Shown piece after piece: positions 43,385 through 63,937 of a DNA stretch of 64,000 nucleotides. The DNA lies in the IMG/VR virus record IMGVR_UViG_3300029955_000013, positions 1 through 64,000 of that record, one strand, 5' to 3'. The first letter of the stretch is position 1, and each line of letters opens with the position of its first letter. The stretch comes from a virus. The notes under the pieces are model-generated. The model was not told where the DNA came from. It saw only the letters and a program-made list of their open reading frames with translations, and ran no database searches. Made by a program: the position numbers and the translations under genes.

Positions 43385-43797
43385 GGGGCCAAACAGGTTA
43401 TCGACTTAACGGTGTATGAGTCAGTAGTCATGCAGGGACAATTCGAATTGAGTTCCTCTAATAAATACATTCGATGCTATAAACGCAAAAAACAAAAGAA
43501 TCGCTGAAGGCGGCGCAATTCTAAGAAACATTTTCAGCAAGTCCGAAGCACCTTGTGCTATCGCAGCCTAATAAGCTTGCTGGAGAGTGCGCAAACTACT
43601 AAGTGTTTGCCAAGTGTGGTCGGGTAAATGTGGTTTCGCTTTTCTGCCATTGAGCGTAACTGCAGCACTTAGCAAAATGCTGTTATACCGAGATATAAAT
43701 GCAATCTGATATTCTCCTGGAAGAAACCAGCGATAAGCATGTGAGTTCCTACAGAACGTAAACGTTAAACACGAGGGTTCGACTCCCTCTGGCTCCA
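43385..43797 (+). ncRNA. ssrA: tmRNA; predicted tag AKNKRIAEGGAILRNIFSKSEAPCAIAA (43485-43571)
   Basis: GGGGCCA/TGGCTCC-A acceptor with G3.U70, 5' GGTTATCGAC, T-arm GAGGG-TTCGACT-CCCTC, ATAAAC|GCA resume context, tag ending IAA then TAATAA. Confidence 0.93.
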
Positions 43798-43838
43798 CCG
43801 AACCTAAATTTAATAGTATTTAAAGTGTAAAGTTTTGA

Positions 43839-44762
43839 ATGAATTTGAATTTAGGTAAACAGAAATTTTTTGTGATCTATCAGATTACCAATTTATTGAA
43901 TGGTAAGATTTATGTCGGTGCACATTGTACTTATGATGTGAATGATAAGTACATGGGTAGCTCCAAACACCTCAAAAAAGATATTAAAGAGTTAGGCCGA
44001 CAGAATTTTGCGAAGGAGATTTTACATGTCTTTGACAATAAAGAAGACATGATGGCAAAAGAGGCAGAAATTGTTGATCAAGAGTTCTGTCATCGAACTG
44101 ATACTTACAATCGTATGATTGGCGGGATAACAGAAATGTTATGGAATAATATGGTTTCGGTTCGAGATAAGGATGGAAACTATTTGAAAGTGTATAATGA
44201 TGATCCGCGTTATCTTTCCGGAGAATTTGTTGGTTGTACTAATGGTTTTGTTCCAGTAAAAGATGTTGAAGGAAATTTTTTACAAGTTGCTAAAGATGAC
44301 CCACGTTATTTGTCTGGTGAATTAGTTAGTTCTGCAAAAGGAATTTTTAACGCCAAGGATAAAGACGGTAATGTTTATCAAATCAGTAATAAAGATATAA
44401 GGTGGTTATCTGGAGAGTTGGTTGGATTAACTGCTGGTTTACATGGCAATTGTGCGTTCAGTGGTAAAAAACATTCAGAAGAAACAAAAGCCAAGATCGG
44501 AAAGAAAAATTCTTTAGCTCAAAGTGGAAGTGGTAATTCAATGTTTGGTAAAAAGCAAACAAAAGAATCTAACGATAAACGGCTTGATAAGATGGGTAAA
44601 AGTTTTTTTGTATTTGATACTGATGGCAATTTTATTTCGCAAGAATTTGGAATAAATCAATATGCGAATAAAAATAACTTAACTGCCACAAGCATTGTTC
44701 AGTGTTTGAAAGGTAAACAAATAAGTCATAAAGGTTTTAAGTTTTTATACGAAAATATTTGA
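43839..44762 (+). CDS. GIY-YIG homing endonuclease with NUMOD-type repeats
   Basis: VIYQITNLLNGKIYVG, YMGS; D.R.LSGE.VG x3; GKKHSEETKAKI, NSMFGKK. Confidence 0.85.
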   Translation: MNLNLGKQKFFVIYQITNLLNGKIYVGAHCTYDVNDKYMGSSKHLKKDIKELGRQNFAKEILHVFDNKEDMMAKEAEIVDQEFCHRTDTYNRMIGGITEMLWNNMVSVRDKDGNYLKVYNDDPRYLSGEFVGCTNGFVPVKDVEGNFLQVAKDDPRYLSGELVSSAKGIFNAKDKDGNVYQISNKDIRWLSGELVGLTAGLHGNCAFSGKKHSEETKAKIGKKNSLAQSGSGNSMFGKKQTKESNDKRLDKMGKSFFVFDTDGNFISQEFGINQYANKNNLTATSIVQCLKGKQISHKGFKFLYENI

Positions 44763-44766
44763 GATT

Positions 44767-45015
44767 ATGGGTAGTTTCAGGATTGAGATTAATGCAGTCG
44801 GTGGTCATGGTGTCGATAGGGATGTAAAGGATGGAGAAATTGTAAACTTCTTTAAGGAGGGAAGTACTACTCCAGATGCGATTGCAAAGTCGATTGTTTT
44901 GATCTTACAGCACCACGGCGTTATGGTTGACACTGCTACTCTAACACACTGGCCGGGCCAGGAAGGAGAAGTCCAGGACAATCTGATAACCGGCAAGCGA
45001 AAAGGAAATTTTTAA
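44767..45015 (+). CDS. Hypothetical protein
   Basis: Clean ORF. Confidence 0.6.
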   Translation: MGSFRIEINAVGGHGVDRDVKDGEIVNFFKEGSTTPDAIAKSIVLILQHHGVMVDTATLTHWPGQEGEVQDNLITGKRKGNF

Positions 45016-45050
45016 TTTGAAGCCCAACCTCATCGGAATTGGACTGATGT

Positions 45051-45251
45051 TTGGGTTTTTTAATTTTATTAATGTATGTAGTTATATTCATTTTTACGGT
45101 AGGAATGCTTTTGGTAATTGAACGGTTAATAAAGCGAACACTCGAGGTCAAGCAACATTTGTTTGGTCTCAGGGATGAATTCAAAAAATTAACCGACGAT
45201 ATGATTAAAAGTGATTTTGCTATGAATGAAAAGGCTGCTCTACAAGATTAA
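45051..45251 (+). CDS. Small membrane protein (start uncertain)
   Basis: N-terminal TM helix. Confidence 0.5.
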   Translation: MGFLILLMYVVIFIFTVGMLLVIERLIKRTLEVKQHLFGLRDEFKKLTDDMIKSDFAMNEKAALQD

Positions 45252-45372
45252 ATGTGAATGGTTTAAAGTCCACACCTTTAAACGTGATTCTATTTATTTT
45301 TTTAGAGGCAATTTGATCAGGAGGTACAGGTGCATACATTGCGGCGAGACGGTTATAGTGGAGAAGAAATAA
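45226..45372 (+). CDS. 48-aa putative zinc-binding protein (not in ORF track)
   Basis: MKRLLYKIKCEWFKVH...RCIHCG: C-x5-H and CxxC. Confidence 0.55.
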   Translation: MKRLLYKIKCEWFKVHTFKRDSIYFFRGNLIRRYRCIHCGETVIVEKK

Positions 45373-45378
45373 AGCAAA

Positions 45379-45402
45379 CGGACACATTTTTGTGTCCTTT
45401 TC
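45379..45402 (+). terminator. Probable intrinsic terminator
   Basis: GGACACA-TTTT-TGTGTCC then T-tract. Confidence 0.65.
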
Positions 45403-45439
45403 TATTTATAACTCTAATATTTAAAATATAAATACTTAA

Positions 45440-46933
45440 ATGGCCAGTAGGGAATTTGCTGAACAATTACAGACAAGACGTTTTGAAGAGGTAAAGGCGC
45501 TTTTCGCGAGTGTTATCAAAAAGGCGAGAATACTTCAGAAAGGCCTTGACAAGGAAAAGAGGTCTACGGACGACTTTGCATACATGATCGGCGAGCTGCT
45601 TGAGATACAGGAGCACTTCCAGAATTACAGCAAGGAAAAAACTGTTGCCGCACCGAGGGAGAACAACTTCGAGTACTTTAAGGCACTTGCCCGCAACGTA
45701 ATGGTCAGCGTTTCAAATCTTTACAAAGAGCTTGTCAAAGGCGGCTATACCACCGACGATCTCGGCTACGTCAAAGGCATCCTCAGGGACCTTAACAATA
45801 GGCTTTCCGGGTATGACACTATAAAGGAGGGCAGGACGCCGGTTGTTCGCACGAACAGGGTTAGGAGTATTATAAACAAGTTCTCTGGCAACATACTTAC
45901 GATAGAGGACGTCGAGGCTTTCTTCGCCGCGCTTACCAACCAACTTGGTATAGATTTTCACCCAGAAGACAGCTTCTATGATTACATAGACAATAACGGC
46001 CACATGACATTCTCGCCTGCGGACGCAACAGACCTCGACGAGATCATGTCCAATTGCGATGATGTTTGTTCGAGTAAAGGCTTGGATGTAAACCAGGTGG
46101 CGCTCGATACGGTCAATAATAACAAAAGCAACCCGCCTGCGGATGATGACGCCTCACAAGTAGAGGACGAGCAGCCGCTTGAGGAAGAGGACGAGCCGGA
46201 TTATAGCGACGAGGACAACGAGCATGAAAATTCACAGCAGGTCGATGACTTCATTTACAACCTTAAGACGGCCGCAGCGGGTAACCCTAACGCCCTCATC
46301 AAGAAGGCGCAAGAGCTTTCACAGAATTTCAGTTTGGATTTCATGGAATACCTAATAGACGTGCTCGAGCAGAATAATTACAGGGCTGCGGCGGCTGGCG
46401 TAAAGCAGAGCTTCGAGCAGAGGAGCAAAAGCGAGGAGTATAATCACTTCAAGGACAAGATTGATATGAACAGTCGCCTGAATTCTTCTAACTTCAACGA
46501 GAGCGAGTTTGATGATTTCGATACACAGCAACAACCTGAGGAGCAGGATGTCGAGGACTATGGCGACATGGACCAAGAGCCAGTATCGCAGGACGTGATT
46601 GACGAGCTTGAGCACTTCATCAAGCAGGTGAAGATAAACGCGTTGAGGAACCAAAATAATATAAACGACGAGGCTGGCGCCGCGTTCGCCCAATCTTCAG
46701 GTTATAGCAAAGAGGAGCTTGCTGAGTTTTTAAAGGTCCTGAAAGATCACGGAGGTTTCGACCAGATTGTCAAAGGCATAACTGAGGCGATGAGCGACGA
46801 CGGTAGCAACGATGAGGCGCCTATGTGTCATGCATGCAACGGTACTGGAGAGGGGCCTGCGAGCGGTACTTCCTGCCGTTCATGTGGAGGAAGCGGCGTG
46901 GAAGATGTAAGAAATACCTACCAGGACTATTAA
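45440..46933 (+). CDS. Acidic late protein with C-terminal DnaJ-type CxxCxGxG zinc finger
   Basis: CHACNGTG..CRSCGGSG; late motif upstream. Confidence 0.65.
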   Translation: MASREFAEQLQTRRFEEVKALFASVIKKARILQKGLDKEKRSTDDFAYMIGELLEIQEHFQNYSKEKTVAAPRENNFEYFKALARNVMVSVSNLYKELVKGGYTTDDLGYVKGILRDLNNRLSGYDTIKEGRTPVVRTNRVRSIINKFSGNILTIEDVEAFFAALTNQLGIDFHPEDSFYDYIDNNGHMTFSPADATDLDEIMSNCDDVCSSKGLDVNQVALDTVNNNKSNPPADDDASQVEDEQPLEEEDEPDYSDEDNEHENSQQVDDFIYNLKTAAAGNPNALIKKAQELSQNFSLDFMEYLIDVLEQNNYRAAAAGVKQSFEQRSKSEEYNHFKDKIDMNSRLNSSNFNESEFDDFDTQQQPEEQDVEDYGDMDQEPVSQDVIDELEHFIKQVKINALRNQNNINDEAGAAFAQSSGYSKEELAEFLKVLKDHGGFDQIVKGITEAMSDDGSNDEAPMCHACNGTGEGPASGTSCRSCGGSGVEDVRNTYQDY

Positions 46934-47002: not shown

Positions 47003-47010
47003 TACATTTG
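47003..47010 (+). promoter_or_regulatory. Bacteroidota-type -7 promoter of leader/tRNA operon
   Basis: TACATTTG preceded by long A/T tracts. Confidence 0.7.
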
Positions 47011-47055: not shown

Positions 47056-47148
47056 ATGAACAACAAGGTAAACATATTGATATTAGGCACCGAAGGCACA
47101 ACAGAGATTCTCGAAGGAATCCACTGGCTCCCAGCTCTATGTTCGTAA
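47056..47148 (+). CDS. Putative attenuator leader peptide MNNKVNILILGTEGTTEILEGIHWLPALCS
   Basis: 30 codons between promoter and terminator; 3' end overlaps predicted antiterminator; codons match downstream tRNAs. Confidence 0.7.
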   Translation: MNNKVNILILGTEGTTEILEGIHWLPALCS

Positions 47149-47170
47149 GTTTACATTATGAATAAATTCG

Positions 47171-47205
47171 AAGCCTGGGAATAATCACCCAGGCTTTTTT
47201 ATTTT
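47171..47205 (+). terminator. Intrinsic terminator (attenuator) immediately before first tRNA
   Basis: AAGCCTGGG-AATAATCA-CCCAGGCTT then TTTTATTTT. Confidence 0.85.
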
Positions 47206-47208: not shown

Positions 47209-47284
47209 GGGAAAATCGCATAGTCAGGTCTATTGCCTCTGCCTTCCAAGCAGGTGTTCGTCGGTTCGAATCCGTCTTTTCCCT
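47209..47284 (+). tRNA. tRNA-Gly(TCC)
   Basis: GGGAAAA/TTTTCCC acceptor, U73, TCTGC-CT TCC AA-GCAGG. Confidence 0.85.
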
Positions 47285-47341
47285 CACACGGGGCTCAGAT
47301 ACAAAGGTATCGTCTGCCCATGTTCTTTGACATATTATTAA

Positions 47342-47420
47342 GCCATGGTGGCACAGTGGTCGACTGCACCGGTCTTGTAAACCGGAATACAACACGTGGG
47401 TTCGAATCCCACCCATGGCT
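47342..47420 (+). tRNA. tRNA-Thr(TGT)
   Basis: GCCATGG/CCATGGC, CCGGT-CT TGT AA-ACCGG. Confidence 0.9.
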
Positions 47421-47426
47421 CATTAT

Positions 47427-47498
47427 CATCCTGTAGTCTAACGGTTAGGACGTCAGATTTTCACTCTGGAGATGGGGGTTCGATTCTCCCCAGGATGG
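47427..47498 (+). tRNA. tRNA-Glu(TTC)
   Basis: CATCCTG/CAGGATG, TCAGA-TT TTC AC-TCTGG. Confidence 0.9.
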
Positions 47499-47531
47499 CG
47501 ATTTTTAAAAGCTAATTTATAAATTCGTTTT

Positions 47532-48251
47532 ATGGAAAATCTTTATGACATTAACGGCCTCGTTTTCTGGAGCAAGAGGGAGATACAGTTTAGGAGGTAT
47601 GCGCAGGAATTTTTTTCGAGGGAGATAAGTGACCTGCTCATATTTGAGAACAAGAGCTGGTCTTTCCATGAGACTGAAGGCCCGCTGCTCATTCCTAAGT
47701 CCTTAATCAACGCCGATTATACCAACGAGGACATTTGGGTACAGGAAGTAATTGGCGACGATAACGAGCTCGTATTGAGGCCTGAGACTACTCCAAGCTC
47801 TTTCCGGTATGCGGTTTCTTTGATAAATAACTATGTTTCGCTCCCACCTATGGTTGTGGAGCAGACCGGCAAGTCATTCAGGCGGGAGCAGGATCAGGTC
47901 TCAAAGAACATGAGGCTCAAGGAATTCTACCAGCAGGAGTTCCAGTGCATTTATGCGGCGGACACCTTTAATGATTATCAGTCTAAGATATTGCCCGGCT
48001 TGGTGGCGGTTTTCCAAAAGCTGATTGGTAAGCCTTGCAGGATGGTAGATAGCGACAGGCTGCCTTCTTACAGCTTAAGGACTGTCGATGTGGAGGTGAA
48101 TAATGGTAACAAGTGGATGGAGGTTTGTTCTGTTTCAAAACGTACGGATTTTCCTATTCAAGTTAAGTTTGGTTCCAAGGAACCGAAGCCTATGCTGGTT
48201 CTCGAGATCGCGATAGGCCTTGACAGGTGCGTTTACAATTACTTTTTATAA
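47532..48251 (+). CDS. glyS: Minimal glycyl-tRNA synthetase-like protein (alpha2-type catalytic core only, 239 aa)
   Basis: LRPET, motif 2 GKSFRRE..RLKEFYQQEFQ, TVDVE, motif 3 VLEIAIGLDR; ends before the anticodon-binding domain. Confidence 0.75.
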   Translation: MENLYDINGLVFWSKREIQFRRYAQEFFSREISDLLIFENKSWSFHETEGPLLIPKSLINADYTNEDIWVQEVIGDDNELVLRPETTPSSFRYAVSLINNYVSLPPMVVEQTGKSFRREQDQVSKNMRLKEFYQQEFQCIYAADTFNDYQSKILPGLVAVFQKLIGKPCRMVDSDRLPSYSLRTVDVEVNNGNKWMEVCSVSKRTDFPIQVKFGSKEPKPMLVLEIAIGLDRCVYNYFL

Positions 48252-48268: not shown

Positions 48269-48339
48269 GCATTTGTAGTTCAGTGATAGAACATGCCTCT
48301 CGTAAAGGTAAAACAGCAGTTTGATTCTGCTCTAATGCT
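48269..48339 (+). tRNA. tRNA-Thr(CGT), slightly degenerate
   Basis: TGCCT-CT CGT AA-AGGTA; T-loop TTTGATT; one acceptor mismatch. Confidence 0.7.
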
Positions 48340-48396
48340 CATAAAGTTTTATTACTCTGGGGATTTCGATGTACATTTGCTTTGAAACATTATTCT

Positions 48397-48923: not shown

Positions 48924-48995
48924 GCTCCGCTCTTCTAACGGTTAGGATGTGACCCTCTCACGGTTACGATACGGGTTCGATTCCCGTGCGGAGTA
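48924..48995 (+). tRNA. tRNA-Glu(CTC)
   Basis: GCTCCGC/GCGGAGT, TGACC-CT CTC AC-GGTTA. Confidence 0.9.
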
Positions 48996-49010
48996 CAAAA
49001 AATAATTGAA

Positions 49011-49212: not shown

Positions 49213-49284
49213 GCAGGAATAGCACAATGGCCAGTGTACGGGTTTGCCAAATCTGATATGGGAGTTCGATTCTCCCCTCCTGCT
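49213..49284 (+). tRNA. tRNA-Gly(GCC)
   Basis: CGGGT-TT GCC AA-ATCTG, U73. Confidence 0.85.
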
Positions 49285-49364
49285 CTGTGTGTGCAAATAA
49301 AGTTCGAATCTTTACCTTATGTACCGGTTAGGGTAGGGTTAGTTCAATTGGTAGAACGGCACAG
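49285..49364 (+). ncRNA. Circularly permuted tRNA-like RNA (T-arm precedes D-arm; YrlA-like topology)
   Basis: TGTGC...T-arm TAAAG-TTCGAAT-CTTTA...CCTTAT/GTAGGG stem...D-arm GTTC-AATTGGTA-GAAC...GCACA closing stem. Confidence 0.6.
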
Positions 49365-49368: not shown

Positions 49369-49441
49369 GGGCATGTAACTCAGCGGTTAGAGTAGTTCGC
49401 TCATAACGAAAAGGTCGTAGGTTCGATTCCTACCTCGCCCA
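49369..49441 (+). tRNA. tRNA(CAT), probably Ile2 (lysidine type) rather than Met
   Basis: TTCG-CT CAT AA-CGAA; GGGC/GCCC-A acceptor with C4-G69; no initiator features. Confidence 0.8.
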
Positions 49442-49461
49442 CCTTAAAAGCAAGAATACGA

Positions 49462-49680: not shown

Positions 49681-49962
49681 ATGGAAGCCAAAGAGAAAAG
49701 ATTTCAGGGCCCTAATGGCGAGTTCGTACCGAGTAAACCGCTCAAGAAAGGCTACCTTTCTATAAAGCAAGCTGATGAAATATGTGAGTGGGTTTATTGT
49801 CACGACTCGTTTAGCGACGAAGAGAAGTTAAAAATGATACTTGGGGTGGAGACGCTGATCGGGGACATAATATCTGAGAACCTTGGAGACTTCAATGTGG
49901 CTTATGTTCCAACCTGGTCAACAAAGTTTAATGACAAAACGCCAATATCGTCTAACGGTTAG
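49681..49962 (+). CDS. Hypothetical protein (3' end runs into tRNA-Glu)
   Basis: Stop codon lies in D-arm of next tRNA. Confidence 0.55.
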   Translation: MEAKEKRFQGPNGEFVPSKPLKKGYLSIKQADEICEWVYCHDSFSDEEKLKMILGVETLIGDIISENLGDFNVAYVPTWSTKFNDKTPISSNG

Positions 49963-50013
49963 GATTGCTCGTTTTCAGCGAGAAAGATGTCGGTTCGAAT
50001 CCGTCTATTGGTT
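49941..50013 (+). tRNA. tRNA-Glu(TTC)
   Basis: GCCAATA/TATTGGT; CTCG-TT TTC AG-CGAG; D-arm like the other Glu tRNAs. Confidence 0.75.
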
Positions 50014-50098
50014 CAAAACTTGGAGGAATCTGGGTCTATCCTGAATTAATAAAGTGCGAGCAAGTGTACATATCTCGCCGCAATAAAGTAAGAGGGAT

Positions 50099-50170
50099 CG
50101 TGGATTAGCTCAGTGGTAGAGTAGCAGGCTGATGGACTGTTGGTCGGTGGTTCAAATCCACCATCCACAA
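50099..50170 (+). tRNA. Atypical tRNA-Ile(GAT)
   Basis: Good D and T arms; loop CT GAT GG, weak anticodon stem, C1-A72 mismatch. Confidence 0.55.
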
Positions 50171-50252
50171 CAAACCAGATAGGAATGTCTGGTGTGCTCT
50201 GGTAATGAGAGTGTGAATAAGCGCGAATAAAACACACTGGTAAGAAACAGAG

Positions 50253-50324
50253 TGTACTATAGGGTAGTGGTAGCCCGTCGGCATCAACAGCCGAAGATCT
50301 CAGGTTCGATTCCTGGTAGTGCAA
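50253..50324 (+). tRNA. Atypical tRNA with CAA anticodon (Leu) on Gln-like body
   Basis: TGTACTA/TAGTGCA-A; TCGGC-AT CAA CA-GCCGA; short variable loop. Confidence 0.6.
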
Positions 50325-50330
50325 CAATTT

Positions 50331-50678: not shown

Positions 50679-51551
50679 ATGAACACACGTATTGCGCCTT
50701 CCCCAACAGGCTTTTTTCATCTGGGGACTGCACGGACAGCTTATCACAACTGGCTTGTGGCTCGCGCAACGGGTGGCTTGTTCACCCTGAGGATCGACGA
50801 CACCGACGACGACAGGAACGATGAGGGTCATGTACAGATGATCTACGACTGCATGGACTGGCTTGGTCTCGATTATGACGATACTTTCAGGCAGAGCGAC
50901 CGGAACAAGATTTATGTTGATTACGCTCAGTTCCTTTTGGACATTGATTATGCTACTGTTGCCGACAATGGTGCTATAATGTTTAGATTTCGTGATGAAG
51001 ATTTAATTCACTTTTTTAACGACACTATCGCCGGCAAGATAGAAACTAAGCAGGATGACATCGACAATCTTAGGAGCCTTGTTCTTATGAAGTCTGATGG
51101 TAACCCTACTTATAACTTCTGTTCCATTGTCGACGACTACCTAAGCAAGATAGACTGGATAATTCGTGGCGCCGATCACATAAAGAATACGATAAAACAG
51201 CTACATGTCATAGAGGCAGTTCAGTCTTTGGATAATCCGGTTAATTATTGGAAACCAAAGTTCACCCATGTGGGCCTTATACACGACATGAGCAACAAGA
51301 AGCTGTCCAAGAGGACCGGTGCGAAAAGCGTGCTCGACTACAAGAACGAAGGCGTAAAGCCGGGTGCTCTGCTCAACACGCTGCTTAGGATTGGCTGGGC
51401 GCCTACCGACCCGAACTTCGACTCGAAGCATAAGATCGTGACGAAGGACATGGCGGTGGACATGATACTCAAGGAAGGTAACTTCAGGTCTGCTCCCGGT
51501 AAGTTCGATCCGATGAAACTCGCATACTACAATAAAAAGCATAGTAATTAA
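50679..51551 (+). CDS. gltX: Minimal glutamyl-tRNA synthetase-like protein (catalytic domain only, 290 aa; GluRS/GluQ family)
   Basis: TRIAPSPTG..HLGT, LRIDDTD, QSDR..Y, PTYNF..VDD, IRGADH, KLSKR; no anticodon-binding domain. Confidence 0.85.
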   Translation: MNTRIAPSPTGFFHLGTARTAYHNWLVARATGGLFTLRIDDTDDDRNDEGHVQMIYDCMDWLGLDYDDTFRQSDRNKIYVDYAQFLLDIDYATVADNGAIMFRFRDEDLIHFFNDTIAGKIETKQDDIDNLRSLVLMKSDGNPTYNFCSIVDDYLSKIDWIIRGADHIKNTIKQLHVIEAVQSLDNPVNYWKPKFTHVGLIHDMSNKKLSKRTGAKSVLDYKNEGVKPGALLNTLLRIGWAPTDPNFDSKHKIVTKDMAVDMILKEGNFRSAPGKFDPMKLAYYNKKHSN

Positions 51552-51579: not shown

Positions 51580-51650
51580 GCCCGTATAATTTAATGGAAG
51601 ACTAATCCTTTGGTATGGGATATGCATCAGTTCGATTCTGATTATGGGCT
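51580..51650 (+). tRNA. tRNA-Thr(GGT)
   Basis: GCCCGTA/TATGGGC; ATCCT-TT GGT AT-GGGAT; weak D stem. Confidence 0.7.
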
Positions 51651-51666
51651 CATAAAATTTCAATTA

Positions 51667-52213: not shown

Positions 52214-52284
52214 GCGGGAGTAGCACAATGGTAGTGCACGGGCTTGCCAAGTCTGATACGAGGGTTCGATTCCCTTCTCCCGCT
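52214..52284 (+). tRNA. tRNA-Gly(GCC)
   Basis: Canonical GCGGGAG/CTCCCGC-U; TT GCC AA loop. Confidence 0.93.
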
Positions 52285-52319
52285 CAGGGTTAAAAAGAGT
52301 TTAAAATAAAAACAATTCT

Positions 52320-52596: not shown

Positions 52597-53376
52597 ATGA
52601 GCGTTATTGATGAACTTTGGAAACCTCAGCAAGAATCCGTTCACGATTATGACGACACTGTAAAAGAACTGCATCCGTACAAGGATTATATCCAGGAGAA
52701 GTATCGGCCGGAGCCTTGCGATTACAACAATTCGCCGCCTCGTTTTTATTATGGTTATGGCAACAGTTCTATTTTAATCACCAAGCAGCGTGGAAGGCGT
52801 AGGCATCTTGGGAAGCATATCATCATCAAAAAGACGCTTAAAAGCACCTATCTCGATTTTGAGCTTCCTGACAAACTTTACGTTACTGTAGAGGGTTTGA
52901 TCGTACATGAAAGCGATTTCTATTGTACTGATGACTCGTTCATGGAGGCGGAATACTTTACTAACAAGTCCATTTACCTGCAGTTTAAAGACGTTAGTTG
53001 CGACATCAACTTAATAGCTTATTTCTTGACCAATAAGGAGTATGATGATTACGAGAAGGAAGACTATCGGTATAGGAGCATGGGCATGATGAGTCCTGTG
53101 CTGGAAATTTACAAGTATCTGCACGAGGGTCGTTCGAAGATAGAGATCGTTTACTGCAATACCTTCTTTGATGATCCGAACAAGCATGTCATAAATAACA
53201 TGTTAAATACGAGTAAGTTTTTGATAGACCCGGTGGCCCCAATCGTACAAAGTGTTTGTGATCTCGGCCGGCATCTGTTCGTCAGCTCTAATGGTTACAT
53301 CTGTCACTGGAAGTTTTATACCAGATTAGATACAGACTTACTGATAAGACATGCTAAAAAACTTGTATTTCTATGA
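52597..53376 (+). CDS. Hypothetical protein
   Basis: Long ORF coupled to next gene. Confidence 0.6.
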   Translation: MSVIDELWKPQQESVHDYDDTVKELHPYKDYIQEKYRPEPCDYNNSPPRFYYGYGNSSILITKQRGRRRHLGKHIIIKKTLKSTYLDFELPDKLYVTVEGLIVHESDFYCTDDSFMEAEYFTNKSIYLQFKDVSCDINLIAYFLTNKEYDDYEKEDYRYRSMGMMSPVLEIYKYLHEGRSKIEIVYCNTFFDDPNKHVINNMLNTSKFLIDPVAPIVQSVCDLGRHLFVSSNGYICHWKFYTRLDTDLLIRHAKKLVFL

Positions 53377-53864
53377 ACATATTTGTGCTCGGCGGTACCA
53401 AGTCCGGTAAATCCACCATTGCGAAGTATATTGCTGATACGTATGGCTTCAAACTCATACAGATGTCCAAGCCGCTGAAAGATAGGTTCGAGCGTGGGGA
53501 TCTGAACATAGACGTTTACACGAACATGTTGGTTAAGACCACGCTTAGTTACATAGGTTCCAAAGAGAGGCGTAAATCTGAGTATTTCTTGAATTACGCT
53601 TTGCTGGAAATGGGGCCTAATAATGTGTTCGACGGTGTGCGGAACCCTCGTGACTTCATGAGGCTTTTCAATCACTTCGAGGACATGGTTATAAAGATGC
53701 CTGGCGAAGGCATAAATGCTTTTGAGGTGGATGGCTTAAGAGCTATATTCGGCTGCCACAGGTATATGTACAAGTACATGAGCGCAAAGCCGCTGATCAA
53801 GTACCATTACGATCTGGAGCTATCCATAGAGGAGAATTTCCAGAACAACAAAATAGTCATTTAA
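53373..53864 (+). CDS. P-loop nucleoside monophosphate kinase-like protein
   Basis: GGTKSGKST Walker A; DGVRN..D. Confidence 0.7.
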   Translation: MNIFVLGGTKSGKSTIAKYIADTYGFKLIQMSKPLKDRFERGDLNIDVYTNMLVKTTLSYIGSKERRKSEYFLNYALLEMGPNNVFDGVRNPRDFMRLFNHFEDMVIKMPGEGINAFEVDGLRAIFGCHRYMYKYMSAKPLIKYHYDLELSIEENFQNNKIVI

Positions 53865-53873: not shown

Positions 53874-55085
53874 ATGGTTTCTAAATTCGCAATGGACGAC
53901 GCTTATGCTGTACAGGCAGACATTATAGAAGGTTGGTACACGAAGTACAAGTCCATGGATTTGCCTAACGGCTTCAAGAGGGTGTTGTATAGCTTTTCTA
54001 AAAGCGGCGTATCTGTTGCTCTCGGCAGGAATGAAAAATACGGGTATTTCATCTGCGCTTACGGTCAGGGCGAATATTCTTTCGTGATGACAGAAGCTGA
54101 TAGCGAGAACATTCCTGCCGAGGAAGTCTTTGACGTTAAAACTAAGGAAGGATTTATAAAGCATTTCGAGAGGTTTTGCAGGGAGTATAATTACTTGGAT
54201 TTCGAGGTAGTCGATAATGTAAGAGCCTATGATGACACGACGCTTTTCTGCCCGGCCGGGATGCAGAAGTATAAGAACGTGTTTAAGGCGGAGTGCCCAG
54301 AGGATGCTGACAAGGCCGTAAGGCGTCAGTACATGAAGCTAAATGAGAGTGTTATAGCAAATATTCAACCTTGCATAAGGATGAACGATTTGGATGATAT
54401 TGGTGACGGCACGCATTTGCTTTACTTCAACATGATGGGCCTTTTTGCATTTAGGACTCCTGGCTTTGGTGTTAGGCATGCTGTAAAATTTTGGCTTGAT
54501 TTCCTTGAGACGATCGGCTTGAAACCGGATCTTGTTACTGTCCACCCAGACAAGCAAGATTGGATATTTTATTACCAAGATGAAACGGTAGAGCAGAAAT
54601 ATGTAGACGATTTTCTTCAGTATAACGGGCCTGATTTCCTGCTCGATCCAGATTGCACGTGGACTGATGGCGAGATTGGAGGTTACTGTACGGAGTTCTA
54701 CATAAAGGACGTGGAGATAGGCAACATTGTGAATCCGCTTGGTAACTGCATAGATTGCGGCTTTGGCCTCGAGAGGATTCTGTATATACTCAATAATGAG
54801 TTGACTATCGCAACCGATTTGGACACGCTTAAGGAAACCATACTTAAGATATTAGACAGCGGTTACACGCCATCTAATCTCAAACAGGGCTATGTTTTAA
54901 GGAAGCTGTTGAGGGAGTTCGTCAAGAAGGGCGGCGAGATGGATCACGAGGTGTTTCTCGACGAGAAGGATAGGCAGCGAAAAATATATGACAGGTGGCT
55001 GCTGCTCAAGGATAAGCACAAGGACAAGAGCCCTGAATGGTGGTATGATACGCACGGGATTGATTTGAAAATGATAAACGGTTAA
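53874..55085 (+). CDS. alaS: Minimal alanyl-tRNA synthetase-like protein (no editing or C-Ala domains)
   Basis: D.TTLFCPAGMQ, QPCIR.NDLD.IG...H..YF.M.G, GYCTEF, IDCGFGLERI, PSN..QGYVLRKLLR, YDTHG. Confidence 0.85.
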   Translation: MVSKFAMDDAYAVQADIIEGWYTKYKSMDLPNGFKRVLYSFSKSGVSVALGRNEKYGYFICAYGQGEYSFVMTEADSENIPAEEVFDVKTKEGFIKHFERFCREYNYLDFEVVDNVRAYDDTTLFCPAGMQKYKNVFKAECPEDADKAVRRQYMKLNESVIANIQPCIRMNDLDDIGDGTHLLYFNMMGLFAFRTPGFGVRHAVKFWLDFLETIGLKPDLVTVHPDKQDWIFYYQDETVEQKYVDDFLQYNGPDFLLDPDCTWTDGEIGGYCTEFYIKDVEIGNIVNPLGNCIDCGFGLERILYILNNELTIATDLDTLKETILKILDSGYTPSNLKQGYVLRKLLREFVKKGGEMDHEVFLDEKDRQRKIYDRWLLLKDKHKDKSPEWWYDTHGIDLKMING

Positions 55086-55416: not shown

Positions 55417-55492
55417 GGGCGATTACTCCCTCACCCTTATAAGGTGTTGAAAGGATAGTTGGTACAGTTCGGTTCGATCCCGAAATCGCCTA
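55417..55492 (+). tRNA. Non-canonical tRNA-Ile(TAT) lacking a conventional D-arm
   Basis: GGGCGAT/ATCGCCT-A acceptor, CACC-CT TAT AA-GGTG, T-arm TTCGG-TTCGATC-CCGAA; D-loop-like AGTTGGTA lies after the anticodon arm. Confidence 0.7.
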
Positions 55493-56787: not shown

Positions 56788-56860
56788 AGGCCTGTATATC
56801 ATCGGTTAGATAGCCATGCTGATAACATGGAAGCAGTTGGTTCGACTCCAACCTGGCCTA
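56788..56860 (+). tRNA. tRNA-Ile(GAT)
   Basis: CCATG-CT GAT AA-CATGG; AGGCC/GGCCT-A. Confidence 0.88.
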
Positions 56861-56875
56861 CACTAAAAGAATTTT

Positions 56876-58042
56876 ATGAAAGTAGATGTTAACCAGTTCA
56901 AGGAGATACCTTCTCCTCACGGAGTTGGATTGTGTGTCTACGGCGGCATGAGCGATGAAATCAAGGCATGGACCGAGTATCACGATATAAAGACAGAATT
57001 CCACGGAAGATTTACTAATTTTCTGTTTGACGGCCAGGATCTCGATAATTGTTTCAACGAGGGGAAGGTGTACGATTACGTGGATGGTTTTTCGCCGAAT
57101 CTTAATAAGCATTTGCACCTCGGTCATGCGTCTAATTTTGTAATAGCGAAAGCGTTGCAGAACATGGGAATTGGCAAGAAGTACATTGCGAACCTTGGTG
57201 ATACTGTTACTGGAGCTGTTGATAAGTTCGAGGCGCTCGAGGCTTTGAGTGACCTTTGGGACAAGTTTGATTACAAGGTCGATAAGATTTACTTCGCTAC
57301 ACAATTGGTAGGCGATGTTGAGATGGAGGATGGTACTGGCGATTATGTCGGCACGAAGGTTTTCGACGTGAACGGTCAGAAGATAGTTGGCCAGAAGAGC
57401 AACGGTAATTATAGTTACTTTTACCATGACGTCGTTCTCGCGAGCAAGTTGAAAGGCGAGACTCTGTATATGACCGGTTTCGAGCAGAAGGAGCACTTTG
57501 AGAGCTTGAAGTGTCTTTACCCCGGCACTAACCACCTGATGCTTGGCCTCGTGACGATCGACGGCAGGAAGATGTCGAGTAGCGAGGGTAACGTGATTAT
57601 GTTGGCGGACGTCATGGACACGCTCAGGACCGAATTTGGAGACGATCACCTTGCTTGGAATGTTTTGAGTGGTTATATACTCAAGTCAGACGTGGACTCG
57701 GTTAAGGACATCAATATGGCCAACATAGACAACCCACGACAGTCTCTCGGTTTGTACTTCAGTTACACGCTCGCAAAGTTGAAGAGCGCCGGCATGAATG
57801 TGGAGCTGAAGGAAAAGTTTAATTCTTTTCGGATGCAGTACAAGTTCTTGAAGGCAAAGACGAACCTGCAGCCGAGAATATTGTTCGACGGCATTTTCGA
57901 TGTTGCAAAGAAGATTAGTACTCTATACGTAAACCACCACATAGCAGGCAACAAGAAAAACCAGGAGCTGTACCAGCCTTTGATGGAGGATTTGCTGCTC
58001 GGCATGGTAAAGCTTGGCATGTTTGACGTAGATAAGGTTTAA
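56876..58042 (+). CDS. argS: Shortened arginyl-tRNA synthetase-like protein (388 aa)
   Basis: SPNLNK.LHLGH, KS.G...Y...D, EQ.EHF, KMSSSEGNVI, DALR-like G.Y..YT.A. Confidence 0.85.
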   Translation: MKVDVNQFKEIPSPHGVGLCVYGGMSDEIKAWTEYHDIKTEFHGRFTNFLFDGQDLDNCFNEGKVYDYVDGFSPNLNKHLHLGHASNFVIAKALQNMGIGKKYIANLGDTVTGAVDKFEALEALSDLWDKFDYKVDKIYFATQLVGDVEMEDGTGDYVGTKVFDVNGQKIVGQKSNGNYSYFYHDVVLASKLKGETLYMTGFEQKEHFESLKCLYPGTNHLMLGLVTIDGRKMSSSEGNVIMLADVMDTLRTEFGDDHLAWNVLSGYILKSDVDSVKDINMANIDNPRQSLGLYFSYTLAKLKSAGMNVELKEKFNSFRMQYKFLKAKTNLQPRILFDGIFDVAKKISTLYVNHHIAGNKKNQELYQPLMEDLLLGMVKLGMFDVDKV

Positions 58043-58149: not shown

Positions 58150-58223
58150 GGGGAGGTGGCCAAATGGTGAAGGCACTTGACTGATAATCAAGAGATGTGT
58201 GAGTTCGAGCCTCACTCTCCCCA
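58150..58223 (+). tRNA. tRNA-Ile(GAT)
   Basis: CTTGA-CT GAT AA-TCAAG; GGGGAGG/TCTCCCC-A. Confidence 0.88.
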
Positions 58224-58368
58224 CGAGGCAATAGCAGGTAGCTCATGTACGTACCCTTCTGCAGACGTGGTCAAATCGTGAGCGAAGCATCAATCGTACC
58301 TGTCCACTGTAACGTGCAGTAGTAGCTGACTAAAAATACGAGACAAGTTGCGGAGAGACGCAACAAAC

Positions 58369-58447
58369 GGTGAGGTGATGGAATTGGCAGACATTGGGGA
58401 TAGGATTCCCCTGCGCAAGCGTGGAGGTTCGAGTCCTCCCCTTACCA
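58369..58447 (+). tRNA. Leu-type tRNA body with aberrant 6-nt anticodon loop (TAGGAT)
   Basis: TGATGGAATTGGCAGACAT D-arm, variable arm GCGCAAGCGT, A73; anticodon unreadable. Confidence 0.55.
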
Positions 58448-58462
58448 CTTAAATTTAACGTT

Positions 58463-59707: not shown

Positions 59708-59780
59708 GGCACTGTAGACCAACGGGAGAGTCAACGGCTTTAAACCCCGTCAAGTGTCGGTTCGAGTCCGACCAGTGCTA
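59708..59780 (+). tRNA. tRNA-Leu(TAA), short variable loop
   Basis: ACGGC-TT TAA AC-CCCGT; GGCACTG/CAGTGCT-A. Confidence 0.8.
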
Positions 59781-59794
59781 CAAAAAATAAAAGC

Positions 59795-60820: not shown

Positions 60821-60893
60821 GGTCCTGTAGCCCAATGGCAGAGGCGATAGGCTTAGAACCTATTTAGTGTCAGTTCGAGTCTGACCAGGACTA
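60821..60893 (+). tRNA. tRNA-Leu(TAG), short variable loop
   Basis: ATAGG-CT TAG AA-CCTAT; GGTCCTG/CAGGACT-A. Confidence 0.88.
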
Positions 60894-60908
60894 CTTTAAA
60901 ATGAGCAA

Positions 60909-61067: not shown

Positions 61068-61095
61068 CGTTTAATATTGCTCTATAAATAATTTT

Positions 61096-61557: not shown

Positions 61558-61570
61558 TTATAAAAATGTT

Positions 61571-61642
61571 AATCGAGTACCTCAGAGGCCAGAGGCCAGA
61601 GGGATCGACGGAAAGTCGGTGGTTCGACTCCACTCTCGATTT
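61571..61642 (+). pseudogene. tRNA-like RNA with intact acceptor, D and T arms but no anticodon stem
   Basis: AATCGAG/CTCGATT; CCTC/GAGG; GGTGG-TTCGACT-CCACT; CAGAGG repeated 3 times. Confidence 0.6.
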
Positions 61643-61657
61643 CAATAAATTATTCAC

Positions 61658-61966
61658 ATGATAGTCAAGAAGAGATTTCCAAGTTTTTTCAGCGGCTACG
61701 AGGCCGACAAGACGATACACGAGGTATCTACGCATGATGAGCTGATGGAAATAAATTGGGTAAAGGACAAGGTTAAAATTCCAGGTCACATTGGGATTTT
61801 CTACTCGAAGATTCACTTGAACGATACGCCTTATTATCTCATGGCTCTTTCCAAAAGTGATAAAGAAATTATTTATTCTGTTATAGGATACGTGTACGGT
61901 GATGCGGCCCTTTTAGGTTTGACCGACTATACAGACTATATCAAGAAATACAACAGTACCAAGTGA
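61658..61966 (+). CDS. Hypothetical protein
   Basis: Clean ORF. Confidence 0.6.
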   Translation: MIVKKRFPSFFSGYEADKTIHEVSTHDELMEINWVKDKVKIPGHIGIFYSKIHLNDTPYYLMALSKSDKEIIYSVIGYVYGDAALLGLTDYTDYIKKYNSTK

Positions 61967-62012
61967 AATTAGCTGTACCGCTTCAAGAGATAGTGGAGTT
62001 TGCGGTACGAAT

Positions 62013-62114
62013 GCCCGGTTGGCGAAACTGGTAGACGCACTGCCTTGTACTTTTAACGAGGAACAAGGTGGCAGCGCCCGAAAGGGTGTGGGAGTTCGAA
62101 TCTCCCATCGGGTA
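62013..62114 (+). tRNA. tRNA-Leu with 25-nt anticodon loop; Leu(GAG) if 62048-62065 is removed
   Basis: Canonical Leu D-arm, long variable arm, A73; CTGCC/GGCAG stem encloses TTG[18 nt]AGGT. Confidence 0.7.
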
Positions 62115-62184
62115 GGAGTATAAAGTTAATACCTGCACGTGGTATGCTCTGCACACAGATTTATTCTGTGACTAAATTTAACTT

Positions 62185-62421
62185 ATGATCGCGGAATTTA
62201 CTGACGACCTGGTTGATTTCGTCGATCACCATGATTGTTCCATGCACCTCGACATGTTCGACAGCGCCAAGGATAAGGTTTTTAAGTTCGGCGACTGGAA
62301 GCTTAGGTTTGTCCACGACGAAATTGCTGATTGTGATGTTTTTTACGTTTCTTTGATCTCAGATTTAAAGAGACTGAACAATGAGTACAAGCCATACCCG
62401 AATTCCGGAAAGCCTCGATGA
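62185..62421 (+). CDS. Hypothetical protein
   Basis: ORF with AT-rich leader. Confidence 0.5.
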   Translation: MIAEFTDDLVDFVDHHDCSMHLDMFDSAKDKVFKFGDWKLRFVHDEIADCDVFYVSLISDLKRLNNEYKPYPNSGKPR

Positions 62422-62785
62422 GGCGGTAGACATAATAGTATCAAGCACCTCGCCGGAGGTGATAGAGAAATACAAGACCCTCACTGAAAAAGAGATCCTC
62501 AGCGGATCGCACCACTCGCTCGGCATGAGCATTAGGAACAACTGGCACCTATGGTGGGAGGAAAGTCATACTTACGATGAGTGGCCAAAAGAAAAACCAA
62601 AGTTAGTAGAAGAGTTTAATGCGCTCGGCATATACCATGCAGACGACATGAGCGGCATCATATTGTCTTCCGCCATAAGGCGGATACAGGACAAGCCACG
62701 TAAGCTCAATGAGGAAGTTGCGAAGTACAAGAAGTTCTGGGCGAAGCAGGGCTTCGAGGATGGGATATTTAAACCTAAAAAATAA
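62381..62785 (+). CDS. Hypothetical protein (DUF6794-like)
   Basis: P..LDEA, HH.LGM.IRN.W.LW, GI.H.DDMS.II. Confidence 0.7.
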   Translation: MSTSHTRIPESLDEAVDIIVSSTSPEVIEKYKTLTEKEILSGSHHSLGMSIRNNWHLWWEESHTYDEWPKEKPKLVEEFNALGIYHADDMSGIILSSAIRRIQDKPRKLNEEVAKYKKFWAKQGFEDGIFKPKK

Positions 62786-62800
62786 TTATATTTTACATAA

Positions 62801-63937
62801 ATGTTTGGACAGATTAACACAAGGAAGGACTTGCCGCACTATGGTTACCCTTCGATCGAGCAGTTTAGGACGGTGATACACAATGTGAACCACAAGGCTC
62901 ACTACGTTGGCCAGGACGAGAACGGAGATGCCATATACGATCAGACGAGACAGAAGCCGACGCTAAAATTCATCGGTACCACGAAGCTGCATGGCACTAA
63001 CTGCGCGGTGGTAATTGACATCAAGAACGAGATAGTTTACTTCCAGTCGAGAGATAACGTGATAACGCCGGCTGAGGACAATGCGGGAGCAGCTACTTAC
63101 CTCGCCTCTATACAGCAGGACATTGTGAATATGGTTAAGGAGGTGATCCAGGAAGAATTCTACGCAAACGAAGTGTATAATTTCACGATACTCGAGACTA
63201 TGCACAAAGAGGACAAGAACAAGTTCGATACGATAGTTATTTACGGCGAGTGGTGCGGCGGCAGCATTCAGAAGGGAGTGGCTTTGAACGGGCTTGACAA
63301 GATGTTCGTAGTGTTCGACGTCGCCTTCATAGACAGCACCGCCGAGATAAAGCACAAGCGCTGGAAGTCTTACGATTTCGTGCAGAGGATCAAGTTGCCA
63401 AGCAAGAGGGTTTACAACATACTCGACTACAAGGTTTGGGACATCGACATCGATTTTAAGGCGCCTACGTTGTCGCAAAATGATTTGATTGACATAACTA
63501 CTGAGGTTGAGGCTCACTGTCCCGTTGGGCTTGCTTTTGGCAAGGATGGCATAGGAGAGGGAGTTGTTTGGAAGTGCATTACGCCGCCCTACGACGGTGA
63601 TTCGGGCTACTGGATGAAGGTCAAGGGGGAGAAACACTCTTCCTCGAAGGTGAAGACAATTGCGGCAGTCGATGTTGAGAAAGTAAGGAACGTGATTGAG
63701 TTCGTCGACAACGTCGTGACGGAGAGCAGGTGTCTGCAGTCGATCGACAAATTGAGGGAGGCTGGCAAGCCGCTGACGAGAGCGAGCCTCGGCGATTACC
63801 TCAGGTGGATATTCAACGACATCGTAAAGGAGGAGACCGACACGATGGTCGCGAACGGCATAGAGGCCAAGGCTGTTGGCGGTGCGATTTCCAACAAGGC
63901 GAGGGAGTGGTTCTTCGCGAACGAGTTGAATTTTTAA
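62801..63937 (+). CDS. RNA ligase, Rnl2 family
   Basis: Motif I TKLHGTN, FQSR, YGEWCG, FVVFDV, EGVV, KVK; C-terminal helical domain. Confidence 0.88.
   Translation: MFGQINTRKDLPHYGYPSIEQFRTVIHNVNHKAHYVGQDENGDAIYDQTRQKPTLKFIGTTKLHGTNCAVVIDIKNEIVYFQSRDNVITPAEDNAGAATYLASIQQDIVNMVKEVIQEEFYANEVYNFTILETMHKEDKNKFDTIVIYGEWCGGSIQKGVALNGLDKMFVVFDVAFIDSTAEIKHKRWKSYDFVQRIKLPSKRVYNILDYKVWDIDIDFKAPTLSQNDLIDITTEVEAHCPVGLAFGKDGIGEGVVWKCITPPYDGDSGYWMKVKGEKHSSSKVKTIAAVDVEKVRNVIEFVDNVVTESRCLQSIDKLREAGKPLTRASLGDYLRWIFNDIVKEETDTMVANGIEAKAVGGAISNKAREWFFANELNF

Follow-up and report, generated by a model that had tools for sequence, protein, structure and literature searches.

A huge peat phage with probable demand-gated operons for transfer RNAs and minimal charging enzymes

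What use does a phage have for a transfer-messenger RNA (tmRNA), some 20 transfer RNA (tRNA) genes, four shortened aminoacyl-tRNA synthetases and an RNA ligase, and what decides when such genes are expressed? The question is raised by IMG/VR virus record IMGVR_UViG_3300029955_000013, a linear sequence of 83.9 kb, whose first 64 kb (called here the window, i.e. the whole stretch of DNA submitted to analysis) contain all of these genes. A preliminary description had viewed positions 43385-63937 as one integrated island that replaces, recharges and repairs tRNAs and rescues stalled ribosomes, under the control of a leader at 47056. The reading that we consider probable keeps part of that view: this huge phage from peat would carry demand-gated operons, through which phage tRNAs and minimal charging enzymes are supplied jointly.

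Leader and terminator modules ahead of the tRNA arrays

As had been noticed before, the block is co-oriented: from 43.3 kb onward all sizeable open reading frames (ORFs) and all RNA genes are on the + strand, as is every feature located below within that part of the record. Three elements precede its first tRNA gene. The sequence TACATTTG (47003-47010) agrees with TAnnTTTG, the consensus of the -7 promoter element of Bacteroidota, and the same promoter-like motif stands before leaders in five loci of other phages (L079, L177, L219, L178 and L182). It is followed by a 30-codon ORF (leader 1, 47056-47148), of which codons 7-22 read ILILGTEGTTEILEGI and the next eight include Trp, Cys and Ser codons. 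An intrinsic terminator with a 10-bp stem and a T run (47170-47205, hairpin 47170-47197) ends 4 nucleotides (nt) before the first tRNA gene.

The composition of leader 1 is far from ordinary. Its run of 16 Gly, Thr, Glu, Ile or Leu residues is unique in the six frames of the 84-kb record, where the next-longest run of these five residues is 9 and a run of 16 is expected 0.0005 times. The first twelve tRNAs encoded after it are, in order, Gly, Thr, Glu, Thr, Glu, Gly, a tRNA with anticodon CAU, Glu, Ile, Leu, Thr and Gly. The match extends to codons, since the GGA, GGC, ACA, ACC, GAA, GAG, ATT, ATC, TTG, TTA and CTA codons of the leader each have a matching tRNA. The two CTC codons fit the tRNA at 62013, the anticodon of which is GAG if an insert of about 18 nt is ignored, and the ATA codons would fit the CAU tRNA if it is of the Ile2 type. 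As the leader contains two ATA codons and no internal ATG, the Ile2 assignment appears the more likely one.

Folding of the leader 1 region gives a long helix around the ORF followed by the terminator; when the 3' arm of the terminator is removed, nucleotides 47128-47136 pair with its 5' arm to form a predicted antiterminator (duplex z = -1.5). A second module of the same design, with TATATTTG as promoter motif, is found at 67668-67820 of the record (L001:3668-3820, locus L001 being record positions 64001-83900). Its ORF, of 25 codons, contains the peptide SSYSSSWSWSS and has in all three Trp codons and nine for Ser, the latter of five kinds; it is followed by a strong terminator, then by two tRNA-Trp and four tRNA-Ser genes. 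There too, folding predicts an alternative antiterminator pairing. No Shine-Dalgarno sequence was seen at the ORF starts inspected in the two leader regions. Between 43 and 84 kb, TAnnTTTG motifs are twice as frequent on the + strand as in shuffled sequences (32 versus 16 expected). Both traits are consistent with the host being a member of the Bacteroidota, which it probably is.

The extent of the two putative operons can be estimated from the terminator-like sites of 9 to 12 pairs found on the + strand at the operon boundaries, i.e. at 47170, 66476, 67794 and 78065. The sites at 47170 and 67794 belong to the two putative attenuators, that at 66476 comes after a tRNA-Cys gene and that at 78065 after the last tRNA-Met gene. 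With these limits operon 1 would occupy about 47.0 to 66.5 kb of the record and include the four synthetases, the ligase and 20 tRNAs; operon 2 would extend from about 67.7 to 78.1 kb. The block had been thought to end at 63937; it does not, as ten more tRNA genes (Leu, Cys, two Trp, four Ser and two Met, spanning 64.9-78 kb) and the second leader and terminator lie beyond.

The same arrangement of promoter motif, short ORF and terminator is present upstream of tRNA arrays at other loci, and there the composition of the peptide follows that of the array. Leaders made of I, Y, G, A and E codons precede Glu-Tyr-Gly-Ile-Ala arrays (L079, L177 and L219); one of I, A, V, E and G precedes a Glu-Ala-Ile-Val-Gly array (L120), one of A, D, C and E an Asp-Cys-Glu-Ala array (L178), one of Q, P and D a Pro-Asp-Gln array (L293), and one of T, R and H a His-Arg-Arg-Thr array which is itself followed by an ArgRS-like gene (L257). 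The significance of the match was assessed by permutation (50,000 permutations) on all 25 leader candidates given by an automatic scan, the poor ones included. The longest leader run matching its own array averaged 7.7, versus 2.4 for the arrays of other loci (z = 13), and the fraction of the leader that was matched was 0.42 versus 0.22 when counted by amino acid and 0.35 versus 0.18 when counted by codon; none of the 50,000 permutations reached the observed values. The folding potential of these regions points the same way: complementarity between the 5' arm of the terminator and the segment going from mid-leader to the terminator was above that of shuffled sequences (mean z = -1.9 for 19 leaders, p = 6e-6). 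In at least eight loci (L079, L120, L177, L178, L219, L109, L257 and L301) a mini-synthetase gene comes directly after the gated array and its amino acid is represented in the leader. Comparison thus strongly supports the control by the leader that had been proposed, but only for the genes behind the terminator. The tmRNA was included in that proposal, which cannot be right, because it lies upstream of leader 1 and behind a promoter-like motif of its own.

Four compact synthetase families and their tRNA neighbors

Homologs of the glycyl-, glutamyl-, alanyl- and arginyl-tRNA synthetases (GlyRS, GluRS, AlaRS and ArgRS) had been recognized in the block, and Pfam, NCBIfam, comparison with PDB structures and a structural model of the ArgRS-like protein all bear this out. 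Judged from their sequences, the four are conserved compact families with intact catalytic motifs and not decayed fragments. All four were found in many huge phages, and two to four of them often share one IMG/VR contig.

The GluRS-like protein (50679-51551; 290 amino acids, aa) consists of the catalytic domain only. It matches PF00749 with 192 bits and its HLGTAR, KLSKR and RGADH segments align with GluRS structures and are invariant in the family, so that the HIGH-type and KLSKR motifs are kept, as are the residues of the glutamate pocket. The protein ends where the anticodon-binding domain would start and lacks about 40 residues of an inserted domain. Against the GluRS model TIGR00464 it covers the first ~315 of 470 positions with 256 bits, which is below the equivalog cut-off of 290; against TIGR03838, the model of the truncated paralog GluQRS, it scores 136 bits and the cut-off of 277 is not reached. 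The PDB matches show the same preference (E = 2e-51 for GluRS versus 2e-15 for YadB). Its best 120 relatives, on contigs of up to 607 kb, are all 280-365 aa long and have invariant catalytic columns.

The GlyRS-like protein (47532-48251, 239 aa) is a class II core without anticodon-binding domain. RPET, GKSFRRE, EFYQQEFQ, SKRTDF and GLDR, which include motifs 2 and 3, align with GlyRS structures, and RPET, FRRE and GLDR are invariant in the family alignment (A2). The protein stops just past motif 3 and remains below the equivalog level of NF003211 (49 bits versus a cut-off of 312). The family comprises 1532 relatives, close to 240 aa in length and with 54-72% identity. For the AlaRS-related core (53874-55085, 403 aa), the segments that align with AlaRS, and that are invariant in the family alignment (A4), are FCPAGMQ, CIRMND..GDG.H, IDCGFGLER and GYVLRKLLR. 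It matches only about the first 190 of the 847 positions of TIGR00344 (74 bits, cut-off 457), short of the full tRNA-recognition, editing and C-Ala domains. Relatives number 1033, are typically about 278 aa long and are labeled 'alanine--tRNA ligase-related protein' by NCBI. In the copy studied here residues ~95-403 match the family; the N-terminal 95 residues (window 53874-54160) are unique and without Pfam match, and this extension and two insertions are missing from the other 19 aligned members.

The ArgRS-like protein (56876-58042) is a compact class I enzyme of 388 aa, versus about 580 for the canonical one. It carries the motifs HLGH and KMSSS, ends in a short helical domain and lacks the N-terminal domain of ArgRS. 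Its score against TIGR00456 is 42.7 bits (cut-off 262). In a profile comparison its family aligns with ArgRS structures over the stretch that begins at the HIGH motif and reaches the C-terminus (E = 4.5e-16), and the AlphaFold model of the protein (pLDDT 93) has ArgRS as closest structure (TM 0.73). The family is made of 170 clusters of about 400 aa among 1.8 billion representatives. To summarize the anticodon side, a domain reading the anticodon is missing from the Gly and Glu types and a short one is kept in the Arg type; canonical AlaRS never reads the anticodon.

To determine which tRNAs accompany these genes, ARAGORN was run on 75, 58, 77 and 48 IMG/VR loci for the four families, and dereplicated loci with any tRNA gene at 1.5 kb or less from the synthetase gene were counted. 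The cognate tRNA was present in 10 of 20 such loci for Glu, 8 of 18 for Gly, 9 of 16 for Ala and 12 of 15 for Arg. In all four families the commonest neighboring tRNA is the cognate one, often as tandem isoacceptors directly upstream. The window itself conforms for two of the families: the GlyRS-like gene has tRNA-Gly(UCC) 250 nt upstream, and the GluRS-like gene has tRNA-Glu(UUC) 665 nt upstream. Moreover, the phage tRNA-Glu genes retain a D arm of the tRNA-Glu type, which is the part that GluRS cores contact. That the phage families adjoin their cognate tRNAs makes tRNA charging more likely than use of the other substrates known for truncated paralogs.

Two observations on gene order were made in passing. 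The mini GlyRS-like and AlaRS-related genes stand side by side right after a gated tRNA array in L079/L184, L113/L237 and L078/L250. In eight huge-phage loci (L082, L088, L089, L090, L094, L095, L097 and L098) the mini GlyRS-like gene is preceded, at ~100-2000 nt from the match, by an amber-suppressor tRNA with a CUA anticodon. As it has G73 and a Lys-like body and not the acceptor features of Gly, the idea that it is a Gly-like tRNA was rejected; the two genes could form a dedicated pair recoding TAG, or reflect the gene order of one clade.

The other RNA genes, the ligase and the surroundings

Eighteen + strand tRNA genes that reach the Rfam cut-off lie between 47209 and 62114 (ARAGORN and Rfam), and the record has 28 in all when the ten beyond the window, to ~78 kb, are added; about 20 had been counted before. 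The three Gly, three Glu and three Thr genes of that count stand. They are tRNA-Gly(UCC) at 47209-47285 (53.6 bits) and tRNA-Gly(GCC) at 49213-49285 and 52214-52285 (67.5 bits for the latter); tRNA-Glu(UUC) at 47427-47499 (63.6 bits) and 49941-50014 and tRNA-Glu(CUC) at 48924-48996; tRNA-Thr(UGU) at 47342-47421 (61.2 bits), tRNA-Thr(CGU) at 48269-48340 and tRNA-Thr(GGU) at 51580-51651. The up to five Ile genes come down to three with a GAU anticodon (50099-50171, by ARAGORN, 56788-56861 and 58150-58224, the last with 66.6 bits) and the CAU gene (49369-49443), which is either tRNA-Met or an Ile2 tRNA reading AUA after lysidine modification. The Leu type, also put at up to five, consists of genes with anticodons CAA (50253-50325, by ARAGORN), UAA (59708-59781) and UAG (60821-60894) and of a class II Leu-like tRNA whose anticodon loop contains an insertion of about 18 nt (62013-62114; 38.9 bits with the Rfam tRNA model), 690 nt 5' of the RNA ligase gene. 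The remaining gene (58369-58448; 35.2 bits with the same model) has a Leu-like D arm and an irregular anticodon loop.

At least six tRNA-like genes had been described as altered in the anticodon or D arm, which was taken as a sign of selection rather than of random decay. In most tRNAs of the block the anticodon loop is canonical. About four are clearly aberrant: the Ile gene at 50099 (G37 and G38, and a C1/A72 mismatch), the CAA gene at 50253 (A32 and C37 in a 73-nt body with a short variable arm) and those at 58369 and 62013 described above. To them can be added the UAA and UAG tRNA-Leu genes, both 74 nt long with a short variable arm, but two further candidates (49285-49364 and 55417-55492) were not matched by the tRNA covariance model at E <= 1. 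As for selection, the comparison covered the short-arm tRNA-Leu type, which recurs: 23 of the 54 tRNA-Leu genes in the huge-phage loci are of at most 78 nt (50253, 59708 and 60821 of the window and 20 more), whereas the long variable arm is kept in 42 of 44 tRNA-Ser and in 30 of 30 tRNA-Tyr genes of the same loci.

The tmRNA gene (43385-43799) was found by ARAGORN and by Rfam, where it covers positions 1-374 of the 374 of model RF00023 (60.8 bits, cut-off 47), in agreement with its earlier identification. It encodes a tag of 28 residues ending in AIAA, followed by two stops, and its acceptor stem (GGGGCCA / TGGCTCC) has a G3:U70 pair, the identity pair for AlaRS. A TAnnTTTG motif (43335-43342), 43 nt 5' of the gene, is its putative promoter. 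Its protein partner SmpB (PF01668) was not found in the 83.9-kb record, which is about 41% of the genome; the SmpB of the host could serve. The tmRNA is the sole RNA with a G3:U70 pair noticed on the record, and in three loci (L202, L226 and L248) a tmRNA lies at most ~2 kb from an AlaRS-related gene. An AlaRS-like enzyme dedicated to tmRNA was considered as a side idea and not retained, the adjacency being limited to these three loci.

The last gene of the window is that of an Rnl2-like RNA ligase of 378 aa (62801-63937), as had been announced. It matches PF09414 (63 bits) and PHROG 548 (207 bits) and has motifs I (KLHGTN, with the lysine nucleophile), IV (EGVVWK) and V (KVKGEK). With 40 bits, it does not reach the equivalog cut-off of TIGR02307 (197), and it gave no PDB sequence match at E <= 0.01. 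Among the ~250 other phage loci examined, this ligase accompanied an array of the kind in only 2. Concerning the enzymes that could assist it, the whole record has no RtcB and no Pnkp-like end-healing enzyme was found, the sole kinase-like ORF (53373-53864; a small P-loop protein of 163 aa) having a weak match to dNMP kinases, not to Pnkp, and no phosphatase domain. The ART/Tpt1-like domain that had been reported was not recovered either, the island ORFs giving no such match with Pfam to E = 10, NCBIfam or PHROGs, and PF01885 being absent from the whole record.

In operon 2, a protein resembling the RnlB antitoxin (PF15933, 65.7 bits; L001:6990-7340) is encoded between two tRNA-Ser genes; from its sequence, it is a candidate phage counter to RNase toxins of the RnlA/LsoA type. 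Two small S4-domain proteins similar to the C-terminal domain of TyrRS, encoded among and after the Ser tRNAs (L001:8615-8986 and L001:11386-11688), may bind tRNA or the ribosome. Around both tRNA-Met genes (L001:11732-14725), an MGS-like domain, an NT5C 5'-nucleotidase, a nucleoside deoxyribosyltransferase-like protein and a Ham1 ITPase make up a nucleotide-metabolism cluster. Between tmRNA and leader 1, the record has a GIY-YIG / NUMOD homing endonuclease gene (43839-44762; PF19835, PF07460 and PF01541) and a 497-aa ORF (45440-46933) without Pfam, NCBIfam, PHROG or Atlas match. Atlas yielded nothing of use for either of the two largest ORFs of unassigned function. Bases 1 to 43 kb contain structural genes (portal, virion proteins), among which is one ORF of 2670 aa (10216-18228).

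The completeness of 41% given by CheckV for the 83.9-kb record implies a phage genome of about 200 kb. Near-identical DNA is present in 19 peat metagenome sequencing runs; the contigs compared are near-identical and fragmentary, with too few variants for selection to be judged. A longer copy of this DNA, of 146 kb, exists, and the nearest relative is an NCBI contig of 60 kb with 72-75% identity. None of 50,697 phage records matched the whole block in a megablast search, a scan of IMG/VR with the GluRS-like protein alone gave no close relative, and a metagenome scan with protein P0003, which is encoded on a 390-kb contig, gave distant relatives only. The conservation of the island across other phages, which had been suggested as a check, failed for the island as a whole: scattered cases apart, its remaining proteins were absent from the 10 kb on either side of the mini-synthetase genes in ~250 loci.

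Proposed mechanism, rival readings and known systems

The organization described above suggests a mechanism of the following kind. Each operon would be read from a host-type promoter motif through a short leader ORF toward a strong intrinsic terminator, the leader being spelled in codons that the downstream tRNAs read (Gly, Thr, Glu, Ile and Leu in operon 1, Ser and Trp in operon 2). When aminoacyl-tRNAs for these codons are scarce, the ribosome would stall in the leader, the antiterminator would form instead of the terminator, and transcription would continue into the tRNA genes, as it does in the trp, his and ilv attenuators. The mini-enzymes would then charge the new phage tRNAs by recognizing the acceptor and D arms and not the anticodon, so that operon 1 could supply on demand both tRNA and the capacity to charge it. 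Since an attenuator senses charged tRNA at the ribosome, inducing a tRNA along with its charging enzyme makes sense. Attenuation and tRNA charging are what we infer from the gene layout, and the same applies to any role given to the ligase or the tmRNA. The fuller version of the scheme is a self-contained, demand-driven supply of aminoacyl-tRNA in which codon-matched attenuators sense slow decoding and minimal, largely anticodon-blind Gly, Glu, Ala and Arg synthetases charge tRNAs independently of host enzymes and of anticodon modification. We put it forward tentatively, with slightly less than even confidence.

Several points weigh against these proposals. A single attenuator driving a 19-kb operon is unusual, and internal TAnnTTTG motifs suggest the existence of internal promoters. 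The leader candidates of L058, L009 and L266 do not fit their arrays. The window's own AlaRS- and ArgRS-like genes have no tRNA-Ala or tRNA-Arg on the available 84 kb, and charging by all four families is suggested by linkage to cognate tRNA genes in loci which were located via the synthetase genes and come from related phages that are not independent samples. Among the sequencing runs containing the stretch, no RNA run is listed. Finally, the Gly- and Ala-like families also exist in cultured Phenylobacterium, Devosia, Caulobacter, Paraburkholderia, Rhizobium and Sinorhizobium, at the native G+C content and without adjacent tRNA, phage context or conserved neighbors; the neighborhoods of the bacterial GlyRS-like genes, being variable, gave no functional clue. 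These chromosomal copies indicate that a function without tRNA is possible, as for EpmA, HisZ and the carrier-protein ligases.

It is on this last point that a more ordinary explanation finds its footing: the block would be a common huge-phage tRNA cluster that compensates for codon usage or ensures late supply, its leaders would sense nothing, and the synthetase-like proteins would be paralogs with a regulatory role or non-tRNA substrates. Many tRNAs and synthetases are indeed common in huge phages, and truncated synthetase paralogs with other substrates, such as GluQRS, EpmA and HisZ, are well known. Yet this explanation accounts neither for a match between leader and array that is far beyond chance and recurs with different sets of amino acids, nor for terminators placed directly before the first tRNA, nor for the cognate tRNA being the commonest neighbor in all four families; we regard it as rather improbable. 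More improbable by far is that the odd tRNAs and the synthetase genes descend from host genes gained by horizontal transfer and are now in decay. The four proteins are shorter than the canonical ones and below the NCBIfam equivalog cut-offs, and several tRNAs are aberrant, but conservation of the families contradicts decay: the frames are intact, the catalytic motifs are invariant and equally short relatives are counted in hundreds to thousands. To this must be added that the ArgRS-like protein is predicted with high confidence to adopt a compact fold and that the short-arm tRNA-Leu recurs in other huge phages.

Closest to the initial view is a counter-defense island directed against systems that cleave tRNAs, in which phage tRNAs with altered anticodon loops replace the cleaved host ones, the ligase reseals cut tRNAs, the synthetases recharge them and tmRNA frees stalled ribosomes. 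That phage tRNAs can circumvent anticodon nucleases and retron effectors is established (PMC10264068, PMC11555353), and ligation of cleaved tRNAs in huge phages has been proposed (Al-Shayeb et al. 2020, PMC7162821). Here, an intact Rnl2-like ligase gene is part of operon 1, four tRNAs have unusual anticodon loops, and the presence of an RnlB-antitoxin-like gene among the Ser tRNAs, together with the fact that an attenuator reacting to decoding failure would respond to tRNA cleavage as well, keeps an anti-defense function in play. It is nevertheless without specific support in this analysis and we hold it to be unlikely. No end-healing enzyme, RtcB, Tpt1/ART domain or SmpB was found on the record, the ligase is near such arrays in only two other loci, most anticodon loops are canonical and the tmRNA is outside the gated operons. 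The known nuclease targets are Lys, Tyr, Asn, Asp, His and Arg tRNAs; they are missing from this part of the genome, and nothing links the set that is present (Gly, Thr, Glu, Ile, Leu, Cys, Trp, Ser and Met) to them. What stands of the initial interpretation is therefore its plausible first half, replacing and recharging tRNAs, for which the tRNA genes score well and supply, charging and leader control are backed by comparison; repair, with the ligase alone, and rescue, with a tmRNA and no SmpB found, are not so backed.

How does the demand-gated supply of tRNAs and charging enzymes compare with what is known? The repertoire as such is not new: Al-Shayeb et al. (2020, PMC7162821) described huge phages with tRNAs, synthetases, tmRNA/SmpB and genes for tRNA ligation, and proposed that such phages charge their own tRNA variants and ligate cleaved tRNAs. 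The phage studied here resembles them in combining many tRNAs with synthetases, an RNA ligase and a tmRNA in a genome of ~200 kb or more. It differs in having families of synthetases reduced to the catalytic core within gated tRNA operons, whereas that paper deals neither with truncation (the words 'truncated' and 'anticodon' occur 0 times) nor with leader attenuators or linkage between synthetases and cognate tRNAs. As to regulation, the modules resemble the trp, his, leu, thr and ilvGMEDA leaders, with a promoter, an ORF rich in regulatory codons, a stop within a pairing segment and predicted alternative hairpins; being multivalent, the phage leader recalls its ilv and thr counterparts. Attenuator control of a synthetase has a precedent in the pheST leader. 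Unlike in the classical cases, the regulated genes are tRNAs and minimal synthetases and not those of amino-acid biosynthesis, the leader samples up to ~12 codons matched to individual isoacceptors, and the host is probably a member of the Bacteroidota.

Other comparisons are partial. The Anabaena L-array, a trn operon co-regulated with RtcB (Santamaria-Gomez et al. 2021, PMC8421152; TrcR, PMC10272220), is also an extra tRNA array tied to an RNA ligase thought to repair tRNAs, and it is normally silent and induced by impaired translation. Its control relies on promoter repeats and a repressor and not on a leader peptide ('attenuat' and 'leader' occur 0 times), its ligase is RtcB and not Rnl2, it is on a cellular megaplasmid and not in a phage, and it has no mini-synthetases. 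The mini-enzymes are, like GluQRS (YadB), EpmA/PoxA, HisZ and the amino acid:carrier-protein ligases, stand-alone cores without anticodon-binding domain. The GluRS-like protein has the domain layout of GluQRS but scores far higher against GluRS (256 bits versus 136), and it differs from the truncated paralogs in missing the ~40 residues of the inserted domain. The T4 repair pathway (PrrC, Pnkp and Rnl1) and the tRNAs that evade cleavage (PMC10264068, PMC11555353) also associate a phage RNA ligase and phage tRNAs, some with odd anticodon loops. In the present case, and unlike in T4, no Pnkp was found, the ligase is of the Rnl2 type and the tRNA identities are off the known nuclease targets. For ligases of that type, the natural substrate is not known even in T4.

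Full-text literature searches returned no paper on attenuators before phage tRNA genes and none on phage synthetases without anticodon domains. Thus, translation genes in huge phages are already published, and what we did not find in print are the codon-matched attenuators and the recurring minimal synthetases coupled to cognate tRNAs. If the proposed reading is true, the assumption that a phage RNA ligase beside tRNAs means tRNA repair would have to be tempered. Four widespread and uncharacterized families of minimal synthetases would become directly testable through their coupling to cognate tRNAs; they would be among the smallest natural enzymes that charge tRNAs, with a bearing on minimal tRNA recognition, on the origin of synthetase domains and on compact orthogonal pairs for genetic-code engineering. 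Attenuation, a textbook principle, would be extended to tRNA and synthetase genes, and the phage would be gauging the speed of decoding by means of a test peptide and regulating its own tRNA pool in response.

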